From NCBI GenBank assembly GCA_030672305.1, contig DAOVGR010000039.1:2651-66650 (forward strand): a stretch of 64,000 nucleotides of DNA. The letters run 5' to 3'. The notes below the pieces were generated by a model. The model was not told the DNA's origin and did no database searches. It saw only the letters and a program-made list of their open reading frames with translations. This document shows, one piece after another, positions 54,766-64,000 of this stretch. The translations under genes and the position numbers were made by a program. The stretch comes from Thermoplasmatales archaeon (lineage in GTDB: Archaea; Thermoplasmatota; E2; DHVEG-1). The number at the start of each line of letters is the position of its first letter. Position 1 is the stretch's first letter.

Positions 54766-54838
54766 GCCGCTGTAGCTTAGCTGGTGGAGCGGCTGATTCG
54801 TAATCAGCAGGTCGAGGGTTCAAATCCCTCTGGCGGCT
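54766..54838 (+). tRNA. tRNA-Thr (anticodon CGU)
   Basis: GCCGCTGTAGCTTAGCTGGTGGAGCGGCTGATTCGTAATCAGCAGGTCGAGGGTTCAAATCCCTCTGGCGGCT. Anticodon stem GCTGA/TCAGC carries loop TTCGTAA. T arm is GAGGG-TTCAAAT-CCCTC. No CCA is encoded. Confidence 0.9.
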
Positions 54839-54962: not shown

Positions 54963-55331
54963 TTAATTCAAAATTTTTTTTACTCTGATAACAAGGTCTT
55001 TTATATCAAAAGGTTTAACAATATAATCAACAGCAGCAAGTCCACCCATACCAACACTCATGGTATCTCCTTTTGCTGTTAAAAAAACAATAGGAATGTC
55101 TTTCCATTTTGGATTCTCCTTAAGTTTTGCTGCAATATCCCAACCACTAATATTAGGCATCATTATGTCAAGAATTATAAGATCTGGATCAGTTTGTGAC
55201 TCATTCAGTTTATCGATACACTCATTACCATCTTTTGCTCTTATTACCTCAAAACCACTCAGCTCTAACATTTGGCCAACGGTTAATAAAATATCAGGCT
55301 CATCATCTACAACCAATATTTTTTTACTCAT
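54963..55331 (-). CDS. stand-alone response regulator receiver (CheY-like)
   Basis: ILVVDDEPD...IILDIMMPNISGW...LTAKG...KPF; 122 aa with no output domain. Confidence 0.85.
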   Translation of the reverse strand: MSKKILVVDDEPDILLTVGQMLELSGFEVIRAKDGNECIDKLNESQTDPDLIILDIMMPNISGWDIAAKLKENPKWKDIPIVFLTAKGDTMSVGMGGLAAVDYIVKPFDIKDLVIRVKKILN

Positions 55332-55701
55332 TTTCTTCAGTCTCTTGTAAAATTTTATCTATTCTATCAAGTAAAGAGTCTTTATCAAAAGGTTTCATTA
55401 TATAATCAGCAAGCCCCTCTTCTAGTAAAACTTGTTTTCTTTTATCAGATATTTCAAGAACACTCATAAATGCAACTTTAATATTCGTTGATTTCTTATT
55501 AATTCTATTAAATACATCCCAACCACTCATACCAGGCATCATAATATCAAGTAAAACAAGGTCTACTTTTTCCTTTTCTAGCTGTCTAAGGCACTCTTCA
55601 CCGCTATAAGCAGTAATAACTTCGTATCCTCCTAGTTCAAGAACAGTTCTAGTAAGATCAACAATATCTGGCTCATTATCAACAACCATTATTTTTTTCA
55701 T
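55324..55701 (-). CDS. stand-alone response regulator receiver (CheY-like)
   Basis: IMVVDNEPD...VLLDIMMPGMSGW...KPF; 125 aa. Overlaps the downstream receiver gene by 8 nt. Confidence 0.85.
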   Translation of the reverse strand: MKKIMVVDNEPDIVDLTRTVLELGGYEVITAYSGEECLRQLEKEKVDLVLLDIMMPGMSGWDVFNRINKKSTNIKVAFMSVLEISDKRKQVLLEEGLADYIMKPFDKDSLLDRIDKILQETEENE

Positions 55702-55851: not shown

Positions 55852-56847
55852 TTGAAAACAGGATCAAAGTCAAAATTTACTCTTAAAGAGAAACTTTTTG
55901 CTCATTTAGAAACATGGAGATTATATACTGTTGTTTGGTGTGGGCTTGTTAGCTTAGCAGGATCTTGCATTGCTTATGGAAGTTTTCCTCCTATAAAAAT
56001 CTCCATCTTAGCGTTATTTATTCCAATGATGGGATGGACGGCTGCCTTATATCTTTCAGATTTTTTAGATAAAAAACTTGATTCTATACAAAAACCACAA
56101 AGACCAATTCCCTCAGGGAGAATAAAACCTTACGAAGCATTAGCAATTGGCGCAATTTTTGCAATTTCTGGATTTTTTTTATCATTTCTTCTAACCTATA
56201 AAAATATAATACTAGTCTTTGTTGTAGCTGGACTAGTATTTTCCTATACAAAACTATCTAAATCTCGTGGATTAATGGGAAACATAAATAGAGGAATAGT
56301 CACGGTTGCTGCATATTTATTTGGAGTTTTTTCAATAGATAAATCCATTGGATCAATACCAATCTACATATGGTTACTATCACTAGTATTTCTATTTCAT
56401 GATACTAACAGTAATCTAGTTGGTGCTATAAGAGATATGGAGGGTGATAAGAAAGGAGGATACATAACAATACCTGTAAAATATGGAATAAAAATATCTG
56501 TATTTATTTCGTTAATATTGACAATCTTTTGGCTTTCCCTTACCTTGTATTTACAATACAATTACAAGTTCTTGAAAATAGAATTTTATCTAATGATGGT
56601 TCTTGATATATTAATTCTGATTTCACTTTATATTTACTTGTTTAGGGCAATTAAAAATTATTCAAGAAAAAAAGCATTAAGATTTCATGAATTCTTTGTA
56701 ATAGAAAGAATTACTTTAGCATCAGCCTTTATATTTGGTATAATTAATGTCTACATTGCAGCAATTATCTTTGTTAGTGCAATTATTATTACAGGTTTAT
56801 CTCAATATTTCCTTAGAAAAAGATATGAGTTTATAGAGAAAAAATGA
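55852..56847 (+). CDS. UbiA-family membrane prenyltransferase
   Basis: About 9 TM helices. First Asp-rich motif LSDFLDKKLD is followed by RPIPSGRI; second motif is DTNSNLVGAIRDMEGDKKGG. TTG start with GGGGG upstream; no in-frame ATG. Confidence 0.8.
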   Translation: MKTGSKSKFTLKEKLFAHLETWRLYTVVWCGLVSLAGSCIAYGSFPPIKISILALFIPMMGWTAALYLSDFLDKKLDSIQKPQRPIPSGRIKPYEALAIGAIFAISGFFLSFLLTYKNIILVFVVAGLVFSYTKLSKSRGLMGNINRGIVTVAAYLFGVFSIDKSIGSIPIYIWLLSLVFLFHDTNSNLVGAIRDMEGDKKGGYITIPVKYGIKISVFISLILTIFWLSLTLYLQYNYKFLKIEFYLMMVLDILILISLYIYLFRAIKNYSRKKALRFHEFFVIERITLASAFIFGIINVYIAAIIFVSAIIITGLSQYFLRKRYEFIEKK

Positions 56848-56871
56848 TATAATTAGAAATTAGGAAAAAAA

Positions 56872-57498
56872 ATGTTAAAAATAAATGATTTTTTCCTTCA
56901 AAAAATCGCTACAAAACTTGATTATCATAAATTAAAAAAATATGTTGATTTTGGATTTATTTTAATTGAAAAAGCAATTGTAAATTTGGATAAATTACAC
57001 TTTTTTTATTATGATATTTATAATGAAATGATAGAAAATGAAATCACTTTAGGGGATATTTCAAAGGACAAATTGGTTTTACATGTTGGATGTGGGCCAA
57101 TTCCTGTGACATCTATTCTACTTACAAAAAAAACTGGTGTTCAAGTTACAGGTATAGATAAGGATTCTCATTCCGTTAAAAAGGCAACATTATATGTTAA
57201 TACAACTGGGTTTTCTGAAAAAATTCAAATCATTAATGCGGATGCTAAAGATTTTTCTATCGGAGACTTTAATGTAATTATTATCTCTCAAGGAGTAAGA
57301 CCAATAAAAGAAATATTAGATCACATTGCTAAAACAATGAAAGATGATGCACTTGTGATTTTCAGAACGTCTTCTTCGCCTAGTGGAGATATATCTCAAA
57401 ATGACTTTTTTATAAAAAATATATTTAATATTAATAAAATTGTTGCTCAAAAAAAGAATGCTTTACTTATTTCAATTATACTTAAAAAAAAGCTTTGA
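56872..57498 (+). CDS. nicotianamine-synthase-like (NAS/CntL-like) SAM-dependent transferase fold protein
   Basis: LHVGCGPIPVTSILLT...VTGIDKD...INADAKDF...FNVIIISQGV...AKTMKDDALVIFRT parallels the plant NAS core VGSGPLPLTSIVLA...NFDIDP...FDVVFLAALVG...MAPGAVLMLRS as I remember it. A plain class I methyltransferase is the alternative. Confidence 0.45.
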   Translation: MLKINDFFLQKIATKLDYHKLKKYVDFGFILIEKAIVNLDKLHFFYYDIYNEMIENEITLGDISKDKLVLHVGCGPIPVTSILLTKKTGVQVTGIDKDSHSVKKATLYVNTTGFSEKIQIINADAKDFSIGDFNVIIISQGVRPIKEILDHIAKTMKDDALVIFRTSSSPSGDISQNDFFIKNIFNINKIVAQKKNALLISIILKKKL

Positions 57499-57520
57499 GC
57501 AATAATTGGGAGTATATCAA

Positions 57521-58225
57521 ATGATTAATCCATGGTTAAACTATAAAGATTTAAAATGTGTTGTTCTCTGTGCTGGAAAAGGTATCCGTATTCTACCTCA
57601 TTCTGAGGAAAAACCTAAAGTTATGCTTGATTTAGGAAATAGACCTTTACTTGAATATGTTGTTGATTATTGGAAACAATTTACAAATGATTTTATTTTT
57701 ATTGTTGGCTATAAAAAAGAACATATTATAAAATATGCTAAAAAACTACAAATTCAGTCAACTATTATAGAACAAAAGAAACTTCGAGGTATAGCAGACG
57801 CAGTTAATCATGTTAAAAATCTTGTAACAGATAATTTTATTGTTGTACTTGGTGATTGTGTTTGTGATGGAAGCTTTGATTTTCCAAGTGATATGGAACA
57901 AGGAGTTGGGGTATGGGAAACCAGCAAATTAGCTGAAATTAAACGAAGTTATTCAATTGAAACTAGAGGAGGTTTTCTTAAAAAAGTAGTTGAAAAACCA
58001 AAAGAAATACCAAATAATTATTGTGGTATGGGATTTTATTTTTTAAAAAATAAGATTTTTGATTATATTGGCCTTACACCGCCATCAAAGTTGAGAAATG
58101 AAATAGAGATAACAGATGTAATTCAAAATATGATTAATAACGGAGAAAAAATTAAACCTGTATTTTTCAAAGGTCGCTATCTAAATGTTACATATCCAGA
58201 AGATCTCATAAATTGGAAAAATTGA
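57521..58225 (+). CDS. sugar-phosphate nucleotidyltransferase
   Basis: VVLCAGKGIRILPHSEEKPKVMLDLGNRPLLEYVV matches the (L)xxGxGTRxxPxxxxxPK signature region of NDP-sugar pyrophosphorylases. Confidence 0.75.
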   Translation: MINPWLNYKDLKCVVLCAGKGIRILPHSEEKPKVMLDLGNRPLLEYVVDYWKQFTNDFIFIVGYKKEHIIKYAKKLQIQSTIIEQKKLRGIADAVNHVKNLVTDNFIVVLGDCVCDGSFDFPSDMEQGVGVWETSKLAEIKRSYSIETRGGFLKKVVEKPKEIPNNYCGMGFYFLKNKIFDYIGLTPPSKLRNEIEITDVIQNMINNGEKIKPVFFKGRYLNVTYPEDLINWKN

Positions 58226-58239
58226 ATATAATAAAACAA

Positions 58240-59523
58240 TTATTTTGCAATTGTTTCCTGAATTATTTCAGAAAGACGTTGAGCTCCTTTTTTTTCGCCA
58301 AGTTCTGTTGTGAGATTTTTTGATAAATCTTGTGCATTTTTAAGGTATGTTTCATAATCACTAAAAATTGTGTTAATTGCATTTAATAGGTCGTACTTTT
58401 TAAAAAATTTCTTTGATATCCTTAATCCTGCGCCTTTATTTACAATATTATCAATGTTATATTGATGTTCACTAAACATTGGAATTCCAATTATCGGTTT
58501 TCCAGAATAAGCAGCTGTATATACAGTACCACGCCCTCCATGTATAATTGCTAGGTCAACCATACTATTAACTAGATTAGGGGATTTTATAAATTTCTTA
58601 AGCAAAACATTTTCCTTTACATCGGGTAATCTATCTTCTTCAATGGTTGTATAAACAGCAATAATATTGTGAGAGGTTTGGCTCAATGCTTCTAGTATAT
58701 TCAAATATAATTCTTTATCGTTAGTATTACCCATCAACAACAGAATAGATTTTCCAGAACGATTTATATGACTCTTTATATCTTCATCTAATGTATCTTT
58801 TTGTTTTTCCAAAAGCCCACCCGATATCGGTCCAATGAAATTTTTCTTAGGAAATTCATTGGTGGGTTCTACTCCTAAGAAATTTTTATCGTCACATATA
58901 AAATTATGATCTCCATTAAGAATATCATTAATATTATTAAATGGTTTAACACCATATTTTCTAGCTATCTTATTAAAATCTCTTACTAGCAGTTTATTAT
59001 TGATAAGTATCCACCTAGCAATTGAATTTTTTATAAAATTTGGCAATAATCTGGTTATAGAATTTTCATAGTTTTCTGGAAAACTTATAGAAGCTTGTCT
59101 ATAATATAATGGGGTAGAAGTTCCAGAAATAACGACAATTAGTGGAATTTTTAATGCTCTAACAGAGATACTTGCTGTTGGATTAAAAGAACTAATAACT
59201 AAATCAACACCTGCTTTTTTAAATGCTTCAATTTCTTCTTTAACAAATGATTCTACTAAATCTCTTTTATAAGCAGAAAATAGCAATTCTTCAAAAGGTA
59301 CTTTATCATATTTTCCTTTGCTTTTCAATTCTTTGATTACCTTAGCCCAAGAGATTTTTCCAAGTTTAATAACCTCACATCCAAAATCTTTAGTTAAATG
59401 TTCAAATTTTCCACCATGACTAAAGAAAATTGCTTTCCCACCTTTTTTTAAAAAAATTCTTGCTATCTTTAATATAGGTAAGGTTTCGCCAATACTACAA
59501 AAACATGGAAAGAATCCTACCAA
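58240..59523 (-). CDS. GT1-family (MGT/UDP-glycosyltransferase-like) glycosyltransferase; 5' end uncertain
   Basis: The C-terminal HGGRGTVYTAAYSGKPIIGIPMFSEHQYN block is typical of GT-B GT1/GT28 enzymes. There is no in-frame ATG. The TTG at 59523 is the first possible start, and an out-of-frame ATG at 59537 opens MRINHW*. Confidence 0.7.
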   Translation of the reverse strand: MVGFFPCFCSIGETLPILKIARIFLKKGGKAIFFSHGGKFEHLTKDFGCEVIKLGKISWAKVIKELKSKGKYDKVPFEELLFSAYKRDLVESFVKEEIEAFKKAGVDLVISSFNPTASISVRALKIPLIVVISGTSTPLYYRQASISFPENYENSITRLLPNFIKNSIARWILINNKLLVRDFNKIARKYGVKPFNNINDILNGDHNFICDDKNFLGVEPTNEFPKKNFIGPISGGLLEKQKDTLDEDIKSHINRSGKSILLLMGNTNDKELYLNILEALSQTSHNIIAVYTTIEEDRLPDVKENVLLKKFIKSPNLVNSMVDLAIIHGGRGTVYTAAYSGKPIIGIPMFSEHQYNIDNIVNKGAGLRISKKFFKKYDLLNAINTIFSDYETYLKNAQDLSKNLTTELGEKKGAQRLSEIIQETIAK

Positions 59524-59595
59524 TGGTTGATTCTCATATTGTTTGGTTATATATATCCCTCATTAATATAATTCTATACTTACATCATTAATTTA

Positions 59596-60366
59596 TTATA
59601 TTAATTTTATCACACCTATACCGGCCCAATTTTGATTTTTTTCTTCTACAATCTCAATTATATTATATTTTGATTTTATTTCATCCCAAAATATACTTAC
59701 TTCACATCCTTTTATTTCAGATTTAACTATATCATGAAGTGCAATTATTCCATCTTTTTTAACTAATGGACTATATAGTTTAAAATCTCTTTTTACACCT
59801 TTATATGTATGATCACCATCAATAAATAAAAAATCTAGTTTATTCCCAGCTAAAATATCCTTGATTTTCTCTAAAGTCTCTTTTTTATGAGAATTTTTTC
59901 TAATTAAATGGATTTCTTGATTATTAATAGCAAATTCAGTATATAGTTTCATCCTTGCTCTAATATAGCCACCGCCAAAATTACCACCTGGTAAATCAAC
60001 ACTTATTATTTGAGCATCATTCGATGCTATTCTAGTAAATAGAAACAATGTACCACCAAATGCTGTTCCTATTTCAAGAATGAGTTTTGGTTTTTCCTTT
60101 TTCAATATCTTTAAAAGTTCTAAAAGTTCATATCTAATTTGTAAAGTCCTGATTAACCCAAAAAAAAATGTTTGAGTAAAATCTAACATTTTATCTAAAT
60201 TATAACTCTTATCAATTTTTTTTATTCTATAAATTGCATAAGGGTAAAAAGGAGCAAATAACAGTTGAAGGAAAAGAAATCGTAAAATCAATTTTACAAA
60301 CATCTTAAAGCTCTTAGGATCAGAAAATTCTAATATAGATTTTAATAGTCGGACAAAAATATTCAT
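59596..60366 (-). CDS. class I SAM-dependent methyltransferase, CmcI/TylF-like
   Basis: LEIGTAFGGTLFLF...ISVDLPGG...FLFIDGDHTYKGVKRDFKLYSPLVKKDGIIALHDI, preceded by an N-terminal hydrophobic segment. Confidence 0.7.
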   Translation of the reverse strand: MNIFVRLLKSILEFSDPKSFKMFVKLILRFLFLQLLFAPFYPYAIYRIKKIDKSYNLDKMLDFTQTFFFGLIRTLQIRYELLELLKILKKEKPKLILEIGTAFGGTLFLFTRIASNDAQIISVDLPGGNFGGGYIRARMKLYTEFAINNQEIHLIRKNSHKKETLEKIKDILAGNKLDFLFIDGDHTYKGVKRDFKLYSPLVKKDGIIALHDIVKSEIKGCEVSIFWDEIKSKYNIIEIVEEKNQNWAGIGVIKLI

Positions 60367-60606
60367 ACTCTTGGTCCTATTAACAGATATAAGTTTAAGA
60401 ATATGAATGAAATATTTATAGTATGTGATTAAGCTAATTCAAAGTGTAAAATATATAAAAGATAAATCAATAGCTTAAATTTAACTACTCAACCTTTGGA
60501 GGTTTAAACCATTATAGAACGATTTGCTCCGCTAGTAAAATCAAGACTTCAAAAAAAACCTGGTAAAAATACTAAAGGTTTTTTTGGGAAATTAACCCGA
60601 AAAACA

Positions 60607-61881
60607 ATGGATAAAATTCAATTATCTAAACTTAAAAAGACTATCAGATATTCCTATAACACATCTCCTTATTATAATAGACTTTTTAAAAAAAATGGTC
60701 TTAAACCTAGTGATATAAAAAAGTATTCTGATATGACAAAGATACCTTATACTAAAACTGATGATCTTCAAAACAATCCAAAATCTTTTTTTTCTGTTTC
60801 TGAGGATCAATTTATCCGAGTATTTACTACTTCTGGCACAACTGGTAAACCAAAAAAAGCATATTTTACAAAAGAAGACCTTGATAAAATTGTGGAGTCA
60901 ACAGCTATTGGTACAAAAATTATGTATGGTATAACAAGCAAAGATATCATTCGTTTAACCTTTGAGGTAGGATATGGAACAGAAATCTGGGGCAATAGAT
61001 ATTGTTTAAGCAGAGCATACGAAAGCCTTGGCGCATTAATTATTGCCACTGGAAGGTTAAATATTAAAGAAGAATTAGAAATGATAAGAGAATATAAACC
61101 AAATATTTTTGGAGATGTCTCATCACGTGTTTATTATCTTACTAAAGAAATGAGTAAACTTTGTGATTTAAAAGAACTCGGTATTAAAAAATTTTTAATT
61201 GGAGCTGAACCAACTCCAAACGCTATGAGAAAAGAAATTGAAAAAGCTTGGAATGCTGATGTTTTCGTTGGATATGGAATAACTGAGATTGGCCTGCTTA
61301 TGGCAGGTGAATGTGAAAAGAAACAAGGTATGCATCTAAGTGAATTTAATTTTCTAACAGAAGTTGTAGATCCTGAAACTGGTGAACAACTTGAAGATGG
61401 TGAAGTCGGAGAATTACTCTTTACTACGTTTGATAGAAAAGGAATGCCTTTGATAAGGTATAATTCACATGATTTAGGTAAAATAATACCAGAAGTTTGT
61501 AGCTGTGGACTTCCTTTAAAAAGAATTGAAATTAAGGGAAGATCAGATGATTTAATACCTATTGGAGCTGGAGATAATCTTTTTACTAAAATGTTTGATG
61601 AAGCAATTTTTAGTATTCCTGAAATATTAGAATATCAAGTGATATTTGATAAAAAATATGGAAAGGATCTTATCACTATTATCGCTGAAAGCAATGTAAT
61701 AGATGATGCAATTTGTAAGAAAATAGTAGATGCTATTATGACTTTACCTGAAATAAAAAACGGTATCGATCAGTCTAAAACTATTTTAAGACCAGTAGCT
61801 AAACTTGTTAAACCTAATACTTTTAACAGAAATTCTATAAAGACAAGAAGACTGATTGATAAAAGAAATCTTTATGATTAG
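60607..61881 (+). CDS. PaaK/coenzyme-F390-synthetase-like adenylate-forming enzyme
   Basis: TSGTTGKPK adenylation motif, YGITE, and GRSDD near the C-terminal domain. A divergent paralogue of the paaK at 46741..48075. Confidence 0.7.
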   Translation: MDKIQLSKLKKTIRYSYNTSPYYNRLFKKNGLKPSDIKKYSDMTKIPYTKTDDLQNNPKSFFSVSEDQFIRVFTTSGTTGKPKKAYFTKEDLDKIVESTAIGTKIMYGITSKDIIRLTFEVGYGTEIWGNRYCLSRAYESLGALIIATGRLNIKEELEMIREYKPNIFGDVSSRVYYLTKEMSKLCDLKELGIKKFLIGAEPTPNAMRKEIEKAWNADVFVGYGITEIGLLMAGECEKKQGMHLSEFNFLTEVVDPETGEQLEDGEVGELLFTTFDRKGMPLIRYNSHDLGKIIPEVCSCGLPLKRIEIKGRSDDLIPIGAGDNLFTKMFDEAIFSIPEILEYQVIFDKKYGKDLITIIAESNVIDDAICKKIVDAIMTLPEIKNGIDQSKTILRPVAKLVKPNTFNRNSIKTRRLIDKRNLYD

Positions 61882-62007
61882 ATCTTTACATCCATATTTT
61901 TTTAATAAGCACTTCATATTTAGGTCTAGATAATTTAAAACATATTCTTAATCTGATTTTTAATGTTTTTTTCTTACTATTTACAAAATTCACAATTTTC
62001 TCTAGGC

Positions 62008-63420
62008 TTAAGCATCTGTTTCTCCACTAAAAGAAGTAATAACTCTCAAACCATTTTTTAACATCCTGAAATCTTTTCGTAAAAAAGCTCGATAAATCTG
62101 ACCAAGAATATAACTAGGTCTGAAATAAAACCGTTTAGAAGCTTCTTCGGTATATTTATTAAGTTCTTCTGCAGTTAAATTTCCTAATCCTCTACGTGAA
62201 TCAGCAATTATCAAATATTTATCCTTTGTATCTTCTTTATTTTTTATTAATTCATCCCATAATTGTGATCCCATCTGGTAGTATAATGGTGAAAAAATTG
62301 CAACATCAAGTGGTAAAGAGCATGCAAAATTTATTGTGTTATTAATGTGTTTTTTTGTTTCCATTGGTGCTCCAAACATGAACGTGGCCATTGTTATAAA
62401 ACCCATCTCATGGCCTAACCGTACAGCTGCTCGAATCTGATCTAAGGTGACCTGTTTATTATAAAAATCAAGGACATCCTGATTTCCAGATTCAATCCCG
62501 TATCCAACAAGTTTAACATTAGCCTTCTTCATTTTCTTATAAACCTCTCGATCTGCTGAATCAACACGAGCACCTTCAATTATTAAATCGACGTTCGTTC
62601 CAATTTCAATAAGGTTATCCATTATTTTATGAGTTCGTTTCTTATCTGCTAGAAAGCAGTCATCGGAGATCATAACCGATCCATATTTTCCATCTATCTC
62701 CTGTATTTCTTGTACCACACTTTCAGCGGATCGTTGTCTAAAACCCCATCCTTTTATAAAATTGCCATATCTCGCACAAAATCGGCATCTGAATGGGCAT
62801 CCCCTGCTTGAAATCATAGAAGTAAATTTTGGTTTAAACAGATATAAATTACCTATCTTTCCATAATCATATTTTTCTACCAGATGACGTGCTGGAAAAT
62901 GAAGAGAGTCTAAATCATTAATCACTTTGAGGGGTTTACCTTTTTTAACTTGGTTATTTTCTCTGTAATATATACCGTGAATATCAGATAGATTTTTTTT
63001 CCCCTGTAAAAACCGAGATATATCCACAATTACATGTTCTCCTTCTCCTATAACACTAATATCTGCATGAGGAATATCGGATAAGGAACGGTCTGGAAAA
63101 AATGTACAATGTGGCCCACCGATGATTAGAGGAATGTTAGAATCTAAATCCTTGATTTTATTAGAGATATCTACAACAGAATTGTAATCGTTGCTATATA
63201 CACTTATTCCAACAGCATCAGATGACATTAGAGAATTTTTTAGGTGTTCTTCTGAGTTGTTCTCCATACAAAGATCAATAATTTCAACTTTGTGACCATC
63301 AAATTCTAATGCCGCGCCTATACTTTGTAAACCAAGAGGCGGGTAAATTGATGGAGAATAGAAGGAGTATATTTCAGTAAGGTTTCTCCGTTCAGGAGCT
63401 CTTAGAAGAAGAAATCTCAT
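62008..63420 (-). CDS. class B (B12-binding domain) radical SAM enzyme
   Basis: N-terminal B12-binding-like Rossmann region (PPLGLQSIGAAL...VGISVY...PLIIGGPH). Radical SAM motif SSRGCPFRCRFCA. The ATG at 63420 follows two in-frame TTG codons. Confidence 0.8.
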   Translation of the reverse strand: MRFLLLRAPERRNLTEIYSFYSPSIYPPLGLQSIGAALEFDGHKVEIIDLCMENNSEEHLKNSLMSSDAVGISVYSNDYNSVVDISNKIKDLDSNIPLIIGGPHCTFFPDRSLSDIPHADISVIGEGEHVIVDISRFLQGKKNLSDIHGIYYRENNQVKKGKPLKVINDLDSLHFPARHLVEKYDYGKIGNLYLFKPKFTSMISSRGCPFRCRFCARYGNFIKGWGFRQRSAESVVQEIQEIDGKYGSVMISDDCFLADKKRTHKIMDNLIEIGTNVDLIIEGARVDSADREVYKKMKKANVKLVGYGIESGNQDVLDFYNKQVTLDQIRAAVRLGHEMGFITMATFMFGAPMETKKHINNTINFACSLPLDVAIFSPLYYQMGSQLWDELIKNKEDTKDKYLIIADSRRGLGNLTAEELNKYTEEASKRFYFRPSYILGQIYRAFLRKDFRMLKNGLRVITSFSGETDA

Positions 63421-64000
63421 CAACAATGCCTCTCTAAATTCTTTCCTATTATTAATATATCATAAAAAAAATCTCCTTATAAAATTTATTAATCCAATAT
63501 AAACCCAACTTTTCAAGTATTTTTTTATATAAATAAAATCCTATTATTTATTCAAAATTCGATAGTTACTTATAATTTACTAAACAAACATTGATTATCT
63601 AGTCAAATCAACAGATAGAATAGTAAAAACAGTACATCTGAATGCAAAAAACTACCAATGAATCGTAATTTTCCAGAAGAAAATTAGAAATTTTTTATTG
63701 AAATTTCCCTGATTTCTTTGGACTATTATTAAGGAAACACGTTTTATCTATATCATCATCTAATTTAACCTAACTTGCTTTAAAACTTGATAGAAATCCA
63801 CCCGGCTTTTCGTATTATAGGAAAATACATTTTATCCTTCAATTGTGACTTTAAAAAAAATTTGATTTTTTGGAAACTATGAATTCCCAATATTACTTTT
63901 TTTTATTTATCTTGGAAGCATCGATTCTCATAAAATCAAATTTTATCTTTGGACAAGGAGCCAGTCGTAGGTTAATGAACATTTTTTTCTTCAAATAATG

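Follow-up and report, generated by a model that had tools for sequence, protein, structure and literature searches.

A 13-gene island with features of an isoprenoid-tailoring system in an uncultured Thermoplasmatota archaeon

What might an archaeon make with a membrane prenyltransferase, an S-adenosylmethionine (SAM)-dependent enzyme resembling nicotianamine synthase (NAS), sugar-modifying enzymes, an adenylating enzyme, and a B12-dependent radical SAM enzyme (B12-rSAM) encoded side by side? This combination lies near the right-hand end of a 64,000-nucleotide stretch of DNA (the window; contig C22:2651-66650) from a metagenome-assembled genome (MAG) of 2.81 Mb in 86 contigs, 88% complete. The source is an uncultured benthic archaeon of the Thermoplasmatota, which we take to belong to lineage SG8-52, of the MBG-D or Thermoprofundales type; homologues that carry a name all come from Thermoplasmatota MAGs. 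One public DNA run, a marine sediment metagenome, contains the stretch (three DNA runs were returned, all from one study). A sequence-only reading had treated seven genes at 55852-63420 as a divergent cluster for a prenylated glycoside, glycolipid, or modified isoprenoid. We find that these seven genes are the left part of a 13-gene island, and we lean toward the view that the island is a lineage-specific system for tailoring isoprenoids, most likely ether membrane lipids, in Thermoprofundales-type Thermoplasmatota, analogous to the Ted/Hgs enzymes of archaeal lipid biosynthesis.

Extent and conservation of the island

The island spans about 17.3 kb, from 55852 to about 73172 in extended window coordinates, that is, the window numbering carried past its end along the contig. 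The right-hand boundary drawn earlier was therefore wrong, as the island runs past the window end and continues with six further genes, in order those for an AttH-like protein, a second B12-rSAM (rSAM2), a sulfotransferase, a second adenylating enzyme (AMP2), a third B12-rSAM (rSAM3), and a third adenylating enzyme (AMP3). Within the window, all seven open reading frames (ORFs) are present where they had been placed; the sole shift is that the gene for the first B12-rSAM (rSAM1) starts at 63426, the previously proposed start at 63420 being an internal ATG. Their seven family assignments are upheld by Pfam, and NCBIfam and PDB searches agree. The genes given below were assigned from ORFs and Pfam matches, except for the AttH-like gene, which has no Pfam match and whose fold was taken from a structural model.

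Scanning one genome per species for the AttH-like family yielded 70 loci, of which the 59 that extend over at least 8 kb were used for co-occurrence. All 70 come from MAGs labeled Thermoplasmatota, Thermoplasmata, or Thermoplasmatales, from MAGs with a generic euryarchaeal label ("Euryarchaeota" or "Methanobacteriota"), or from MAGs of uncultured archaea. A NAS-like gene is present in 44 of the 59 loci, an rSAM2-type gene in 43 (37 at ≥60% identity), and a UbiA gene in 41 (31 at ≥45% identity), whereas the counts fall to 15 for the adenylating enzyme AMP1, 5 for the sulfotransferase, 4 for the GT1 glycosyltransferase, and 2 each for the Methyltransf_24 methyltransferase (MT24) and the NDP-sugar pyrophosphorylase (an NTP-transferase). 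The seven genes are thus not the co-conserved unit that they had been taken for. That unit also misses the best-conserved partners, the AttH-like protein and the 439-residue rSAM2, both of which are encoded beyond its coordinates, and the B12-rSAM that it does include, rSAM1, is a peripheral member of the island with close orthologues in only a few genomes.

Gene order is conserved among the core genes as well. A same-strand NAS-like gene lies downstream of the UbiA orthologue in 23 of 34 cases, a divergent AttH-like gene lies within 600 nt of the UbiA orthologue in 20 of 34, and the AttH-like gene lies directly downstream of the rSAM2 orthologue in 14 of 38. In a search of 40 relatives, rSAM2 homologues with 64-92% identity, some cut by contig ends, were found in about 20 of the 24 genomes of the same family. 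The AttH family is present in 14 of these 24, and UbiA orthologues (46-85% identity) are present in 13 of the 40, namely 11 of the 24 and two genomes of a sister family. In another sister family, with small genomes, which has neither UbiA nor AttH orthologues, an rSAM2 homologue (50-52% identity) directly adjoins a NAS-like gene in five genomes (G025:C26:4213-6028, G027:C40:30-1824, G031:C141:2179-4000, G032:C12:4923-6756, and G033:C7:17666-19517). The rSAM2 and NAS-like genes are the deepest conserved pair of the system. Conservation is nested, with this pair the most widespread, then the AttH-like and UbiA genes, then AMP1, and finally the sugar genes and the sulfotransferase, which are found only in this genus and a few relatives.

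Core enzymes and their closest relatives

The UbiA-family prenyltransferase (55852-56847, + strand) matches PF01040 with 115.9 bits, and its best PDB match is the digeranylgeranylglyceryl phosphate (DGGGP) synthase (DGGGPS) of M. jannaschii (6M31, 81 bits), followed by chlorophyll synthase. Both Asp-rich motifs, which bind Mg2+ and prenyl diphosphate, are kept (SDFLDKKLD and DMEGD, compared with NDIFDIEID and DMEGD in 6M31), and its 9 hydrophobic segments are in line with the approximately 9 transmembrane segments of DGGGPS, its closest relative in both structure and sequence. However, the enzyme scores far below the DGGGPS equivalog cut-offs (102 of 296 bits for PRK12882, 91.8 of 353 for PRK12883, and 130.4 of 269 for PRK12884), and a separate UbiA paralogue at C55:3361-4263 scores 258.6 bits with PRK12884 and 178.5 bits with PRK12882. 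We therefore rejected the cluster UbiA as the housekeeping DGGGPS. Judged by these scores, the C55 paralogue is likely to fill that role, and the cluster UbiA appears to be a divergent paralogue from the DGGGPS branch. More generally, none of the seven window genes encodes a known housekeeping enzyme, because none of them (0 of 7) reaches a curated NCBIfam equivalog cut-off.

In this genome, 19 genes score above the Pfam cut-off for PF01040, that of the cluster UbiA among them; they are located on C32, C34, C52, C55, and other contigs. Across the host family the number of UbiA copies is 6-19, except in one incomplete genome (64% complete) with a single copy; genomes from the order's sister families have 1-6, and those from other families in the class have 0-5. 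A second isoprenoid island at C32:3394-15988 has five UbiA paralogues interleaved with two genes for CrtC-like lipocalin proteins and with genes for a geranylgeranyl-reductase-like (GGR-like) protein, a CrtI/amine-oxidase-fold protein, and a GT2 glycosyltransferase. The pairing of a UbiA enzyme with an AttH/CrtC-like protein seems to recur as a module.

The gene for the 208-residue NAS-like protein (56872-57498, + strand) follows. The protein matches PF03059 with 46.3 bits against a cut-off of 27.1, generic methyltransferase models match more weakly, and its best PDB matches are thermonicotianamine synthase (MtNAS) and CntL, ahead of methyltransferases that include arginine methyltransferases. 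PF03059 is found in all 38 database orthologues save one, a partial match of 136 residues. In place of the class-I G-x-G-x-G motif, the protein has the NAS-type SAM motif G-x-G-P-x-P-x-T (GCGPIPVT, aligned to GGGPLPLT in MtNAS), with positions G, G, P, and T conserved in ≥80% of 68 family members. For the catalytic Tyr of NAS, the pairwise and family alignments differ by one position. The protein lacks the helical N-terminal domain that makes up the substrate chamber in NAS: it matches the profile from position 90 to 231 of 276 and has only about 42 residues ahead of the core. On this basis, the protein is a candidate 3-amino-3-carboxypropyl (or methyl) transferase.

Could the product then be a metal chelator? 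The NAS-like enzyme would build an opine- or nicotianamine-type aminocarboxypropyl-amine chelator, and UbiA would anchor it via a prenyl chain to give a lipidated metallophore. The kinship with MtNAS and the staphylopine enzyme CntL and the conserved co-directional pairing of the UbiA and NAS-like genes would suit such a product, but the NAS/CntL N-terminal domain is absent, the island has no genes for an opine dehydrogenase (CntM-like), a racemase, or a metal transporter, and the conserved partners of the module are lipid-type enzymes. Instead of opine-pathway genes, the NAS-like gene is accompanied by those for a membrane prenyltransferase and a B12-rSAM. We regard a metallophore as very improbable.

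On the right-hand side of the island, the genes for rSAM2 (65245-66564, − strand, 439 residues) and the AttH-like protein (63893-65212, − strand; C22:66543-67862) share a strand with a gap of 32 nt, and only the 3′ end of the latter (63893..64000) is inside the window. All three B12-rSAMs of the island have a B12-binding domain and a radical SAM domain with a CxxxCxxC motif. In rSAM2 (PF02310 and PF04055) the motif is at residue 173, and a DUF4070 domain forms the tail. The HpnJ model gives 164 bits for rSAM1, for which it is the best model, and 112 and 208 bits for the other two against a cut-off of 577.6, and no named subfamily cut-off is reached.

The unannotated AttH-like protein (439 residues) belongs to a family of 111 database members, a few of which match PF07143 (CrtC). 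From an alignment of 40 sequences, an AlphaFold model was built (pLDDT 90.1, pTM 0.87) and compared with the PDB using Foldseek. The top matches are AttH (2ICH, E = 6.6e-15), kievitone hydratase (7A0T, E = 7e-13), 25-phosphosteroid lyase (9G4C), and fungal Diels-Alderases of the same fold. The model thus points to an enzyme of the AttH/CrtC lipocalin-type double β-barrel fold. An invariant glutamate, E184 (GKGYLEKAWGNW), aligns with the aspartate of GYHDHNW in a CrtC-like paralogue in a profile comparison with an hhalign probability of only 57%. A segment of about 40 residues (residues ~193-237; extended window 64500-64640) has no counterpart in the CrtC-like paralogue of this genome and includes an aromatic-rich predicted helix at residues 202-218 (...SIYGNLFYWWFTHRK), which could dip into the membrane or serve as a membrane-contact element.

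Three known systems provide points of comparison for this pair. In the first, the B12-rSAM Ted of a Bathyarchaeon desaturates the chains of glycerol dialkyl glycerol tetraethers (GDGTs), and Hgs, an AttH-like protein whose gene overlaps that of Ted, hydrates the new double bonds to yield hydroxy-GDGTs; the Ted-related B12-rSAMs Cgm, Pgm, and Gmm methylate GDGT chains (Garcia, Chadwick, Nayak, Welander; bioRxiv 10.1101/2025.10.20.683597). The resemblance lies in the gene arrangement, with a B12-rSAM gene directly preceding an AttH-fold gene on the same strand, in the AttH fold, which here is supported by the model and the fold search, and in the context of archaeal isoprenoid lipids. The island pair, however, is associated with a UbiA paralogue, a NAS-like enzyme, and PaaK-like ligases, which the Ted/Hgs system does not include, and rSAM2 as predicted could equally be a methylase. 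The preprint defined Ted homologues by a length of ≥500 residues and a BLASTP E of ≤1e-100, Cgm homologues by a length of >495 residues, and Hgs homologues by E ≤1e-80 (bioRxiv 10.1101/2025.10.20.683597). At 439, 472, and 473 residues, respectively, rSAM2, rSAM1, and rSAM3 are all shorter than the Ted threshold. The rSAM2/AttH-like pair copies the Ted/Hgs arrangement and folds but, judged by the length and taxonomy criteria, appears not to be of the same family.

The second comparison is with carotenoid tailoring, in which LyeJ (lycopene elongase/hydratase) acts with CrtD and CruF to make bacterioruberin and CrtC acts with CruC to make hydroxy-carotenoid glycosides. There, too, a UbiA-family enzyme and a hydratase of isoprenoid double bonds are found, and the tertiary alcohol made by the hydratase becomes the site for a glycosyltransferase; moreover, the UbiA paralogues on C32 lie beside CrtC-like, CrtI-like, and GGR-like genes. 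Unlike the island, however, carotenoid tailoring has no counterpart of the B12-rSAM, NAS-like, or PaaK-like enzymes, and the island's host comes from a marine sediment metagenome. The third is the 25-hydroxysteroid kinase/25-phosphosteroid lyase system of anaerobic sterol degradation, in which the lyase, one of the top fold matches noted above, targets the tertiary C25 in a side chain of the isoprenoid type. A nucleotide-dependent activating enzyme, here AMP1, often directly adjoins the AttH-like gene. The match is at the level of fold (8-9% identity), however, and AMP1 is an adenylate-forming enzyme of the PaaK/F390 type and not a kinase.

The gene neighborhoods of relatives place the island in an isoprenoid context. 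ORF clustering of the 70 loci, with representatives scanned, identified as recurrent neighbors the large and small subunits of AcnX, the phosphomevalonate dehydratase of the archaeal mevalonate pathway, and a GGR-like flavoprotein. A reductase of the NAD-dependent epimerase, 3-beta-HSD, or "male sterility" type also recurs, often between the UbiA and NAS-like genes, as do class-I methyltransferases and an HD protein. An OTCase gene present in 31 loci was considered as a pathway member and rejected; it is probably housekeeping ArgF, of which this genome has a 57%-identical copy on C85. Because AcnX and GGR-like genes occur in relatives' islands, the general logic of a modified isoprenoid, possibly glycosylated, which the sequence-only reading had proposed, still stands; the unit to which it was applied was mis-bounded, and the core lies mostly outside the sugar genes. 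In the present genome, both AcnX subunits are encoded in a separate region at C26:19914-39014, along with a GHMP kinase resembling mevalonate kinase, two paralogues of the NAS-like protein, and two LPG_synthase_TM proteins. The region also has genes for a class-I methyltransferase, for an rSAM1-like B12-rSAM, and for a remote AttH paralogue that bears a hydrophobic segment at its N-terminus. In relatives, this block and the studied island are contiguous.

Several observations weigh against a lipid-tailoring system of the Ted/Hgs kind. Hgs homologues are found mainly in Methanobacteriota and Bathyarchaeota, and the Thermoplasmatota are described as being without Hgs (bioRxiv 10.1101/2025.10.20.683597). 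The AttH family of the island, in contrast, is found only in Thermoplasmatota-type MAGs, and because the phylum is described in this way, the family is at most a distant analogue of Hgs; the preprint's taxonomic description suggests that the family falls short of the Hgs homology criterion. With 439 residues and its DUF4070 tail, rSAM2 is also below the Cgm length threshold. The UbiA and AttH genes overlap only partially among the 24 family relatives, with both in 8, UbiA alone in 3, and AttH alone in 6. No RNA run containing the stretch was returned by the search of public runs. No member reaches an equivalog cut-off, so that every substrate has been inferred. Finally, the PaaK-like ligases, GT1, the sulfotransferase, and the variable gene content fit a diffusible secondary metabolite equally well.

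Adenylating enzymes, sugar genes, and flanks

The adenylating enzyme AMP1 (60607-61881, + strand) bears on that last point. It has the AMP-binding and AMP-binding_C_2 domains of Pfam and matches B. thetaiotaomicron PaaK (4R1L) with 203.7 bits, sharing its fold and domain architecture, and scores below the PaaK equivalog cut-off (TIGR02155, 237.2 against 646.3 bits). The 15 loci with an AMP1 orthologue mostly have it adjoining the NAS-like or AttH-like gene. F390 synthetase, the other namesake of these enzymes, adenylylates a phenolic hydroxyl. The two further PaaK/F390-like genes of the island are those for AMP2 (67768-69171, + strand), with the gene for rSAM3 (69217-70638, + strand, 473 residues) 45 nt downstream, and for AMP3 (71796-73172, − strand). 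Genes for PaaK/F390-like enzymes recur beside B12-rSAM genes in this genome, either divergent or co-directional (C9:10981-13576, C16:20259-22834, and extended window 67768-70638). We found no description of this pairing, nor one of the cluster as a whole, in the literature searched on UbiA and AttH pairs, PaaK and B12-rSAM pairs, and Thermoprofundales lipids.

An alternative, unlikely in our judgment, is that the island directs the synthesis of a secondary metabolite, a small prenylated compound that diffuses freely, such as a meroterpenoid glycoside. A PaaK-like ligase would activate an aryl or alkyl acid and UbiA would prenylate an aromatic or polar core, after which the AttH-like enzyme would hydrate the prenyl double bond in the manner of kievitone hydratase, and GT1, the methyltransferase, and the sulfotransferase would decorate the product. 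Kievitone hydratase does act on a prenyl side chain of an aromatic compound, the nearest relatives of AMP1 are phenylacetate-CoA ligases and the ligases for flexirubin and bagremycin, GT1 belongs to the macrolide or UGT type, the gene content is patchy and differs between genomes, and 19 UbiA paralogues suggest a diversifying chemistry. The cluster UbiA, however, is nearest to O-prenylating lipid and chlorophyll synthases and not to the aromatic prenyltransferases that act on 4-hydroxybenzoate or 1,4-dihydroxy-2-naphthoate (DHNA), and the island has no gene for making an aromatic core. A near-universal rSAM2 in the family is unlike what would be expected of a dispensable secondary metabolite, and the neighbors in relatives are mevalonate-pathway and geranylgeranyl-reductase-like genes.

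The three sugar genes form a cassette that is limited to this genus and to G011 and L032. The NDP-sugar pyrophosphorylase (57506-58225, + strand), a sugar-1-phosphate nucleotidylyltransferase, matches PF00483 with 70.9 bits; its nearest models are the archaeal GlmU N-domain, AglF, and RmlA-long, all below cut-off, and it is an accessory member whose gene occurs in the two congeners in addition to the two related loci counted above. The GT1 glycosyltransferase (58240-59523, − strand) matches the superfamily-level Pfam models UDPGT, EryCIII-like_C, and Glyco_tran_28_C and is below the MGT subfamily cut-off (TIGR01426, 70.2 against 260 bits). Its PDB matches are enzymes of the UGT2B, YjiC, and OleD type, which glycosylate small lipophilic acceptors. 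GT1 is likewise accessory, yet it is located inside the island in differing arrangements in the relatives G001, G003, G011, and L032. The third gene encodes MT24, of the CmcI type (59596-60366, − strand; PF13578, 59.3 bits; RMNT_CmcI PF04989, 47.9 against 23.2 bits; equivalog NF045824, 30.1 against 400). With an N-terminal hydrophobic segment at residues 19-39, MT24 is predicted to be membrane-anchored and sugar O-methyltransferase-like. It, too, is accessory and is also found in the congeners. The cassette is linked to the UbiA and NAS-like genes in three gene orders, one in this genome, one in G001 and G003, and one in G011 and L032, which argues for a functional linkage in that subclade. 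The G+C content is 25-28% over 56000-60500, a range covering the NAS-like, NTP-transferase, GT1, and MT24 genes, compared with 30-35% in the flanks.

These genes might instead have nothing to do with their neighbors. If the island encodes no common pathway, the sulfotransferase (66755-67600, − strand) and the sugar genes would serve cell-surface glycans or N-glycans and would sit in a recombination-prone island beside unrelated lipid genes. The absence of the sugar genes from most related islands, the likeness of the NTP-transferase to archaeal GlmU, AglF, and RmlA types, the shift of the cassette relative to UbiA within the genus, and the coincidence of the lowest G+C with 56000-60500 all speak for such an arrangement. 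Set against this are the interleaving of the cassette with UbiA and the NAS-like gene inside the island in at least five genomes and three gene orders, the nature of GT1, which is of the UGT/MGT type for small lipophilic acceptors and not of the GT2 or GT4 type usual for dolichol-linked glycans, and the predicted membrane anchor of MT24. We consider it unlikely that the island lacks a common pathway, but the case against a role in N-glycosylation is less decisive for the sugar genes than the case against a housekeeping DGGGPS role is for UbiA.

The remaining window gene of the island, that for rSAM1 (62008-63426, − strand), encodes a 472-residue class-B B12-rSAM, in which the CxxxCxxC motif begins the count at residue 210. 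At C44:45913-50340, three paralogues of rSAM1 with 56-58% identity lie in tandem.

The island is bounded on the right, after AMP3, by housekeeping genes for PGK, GAPDH, a MiaB-like protein, and class-I LysRS, and on the left by a pair of receiver genes and RNase HII. Both flanks recur in many related genomes, and the content of the island between them varies. In locus L070, for example, only genes for rSAM2, GGR-like, AttH-like, NAS-like, OTCase, and UbiA proteins lie between PGK and the receiver genes. Where the variable island begins on the left, a tRNA-Thr(CGT) gene (54766-54838) separates RNase HII from the receiver pair. The two overlapping genes for stand-alone, CheY-like receivers (55324-55701 and 54963-55331, − strand; Response_reg, 97.3 and 90.2 bits) share a 150-nt spacer with the divergent UbiA gene, as had been described. 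This adjacency lends no particular weight to the signal-dependent control that it was taken to hint at, because the pair flanks different island genes in different genomes; we rejected the pair as a dedicated regulator and regard it as a conserved synteny flank.

The other candidate for regulation was a 10-bp A/U-rich inverted repeat with a U-run, which does exist in the leader of the AMP1 gene (60552-60561 and 60576-60585). The hairpin at 60552-60585 folds better than shuffled sequences (−13.3 kcal/mol, z = −3.0), but the 8.4 kb of AT-rich DNA examined contain 21 comparable short inverted repeats, this one included. Its pattern was matched in 0 of 97 loci searched, and we rejected it as a regulatory element, as it is ordinary for AT-rich DNA. 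We infer operon structure and regulation from gene spacing only.

A possible tailoring route and its meaning

If the island is an isoprenoid-tailoring system, the following route can be envisioned. The DGGGPS-derived UbiA paralogue would transfer a prenyl chain to an O-nucleophile to give a core that is a lipid or resembles one. The isoprenoid chain would be desaturated or C-methylated at unactivated carbons by rSAM2, and the AttH-fold enzyme would add or remove water at a tertiary isoprenoid carbon, as in the case of Ted/Hgs. The NAS-like enzyme could contribute an aminocarboxypropyl or methyl group from SAM, and the role of the PaaK/F390-like enzymes might be to adenylylate a hydroxyl or to activate a carboxylate. 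Glycosylation of the hydroxylated product, using the NDP-sugar pyrophosphorylase and GT1, would follow in this genus; the sugar would then be O-methylated by MT24, and the product might also be sulfated. Glycosylation of a tertiary alcohol made by a hydratase has a precedent in the carotenoid glycoside pathways (CrtC/CruC).

A more far-reaching version, which is decidedly unlikely as a whole, is that Thermoprofundales make an undescribed class of isoprenoid ether lipids. The UbiA paralogue and the truncated NAS-type enzyme would together supply a core or head group of a non-canonical kind, for example an aminocarboxypropyl (homoserine- or betaine-like) one, the short B12-rSAM and the new AttH-family hydratase would desaturate or hydroxylate the chains, and one genus would add glycosyl, O-methyl, and sulfate groups. 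The 6-19 UbiA paralogues would then represent a combinatorial lipid-tailoring repertoire. If this were true, an aminocarboxypropyl ether lipid would be the first case of a NAS-family enzyme acting on a lipid.

Overall, isoprenoid-lipid tailoring by a B12-rSAM and an AttH-type enzyme is already known in kind, and what is unusual here is the UbiA/NAS-like module beside such a pair. Thermoprofundales-type (MBG-D) archaea are abundant in marine sediments and are among the most widespread benthic archaea, and they are uncultured. Environmental and palaeoclimate studies use hydroxylated, unsaturated, and methylated archaeal ether lipids as proxies, and which organisms produce these lipids is a matter of debate. 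The conserved set, in which a DGGGPS-like paralogue and a NAS-like enzyme accompany a new short B12-rSAM and a new AttH family, provides concrete candidate genes for heterologous expression, which could reveal a NAS-type transferase in a lipid pathway, tertiary-alcohol lipids that are glycosylated or sulfated, or a role for PaaK/F390-type enzymes beside B12-rSAMs.

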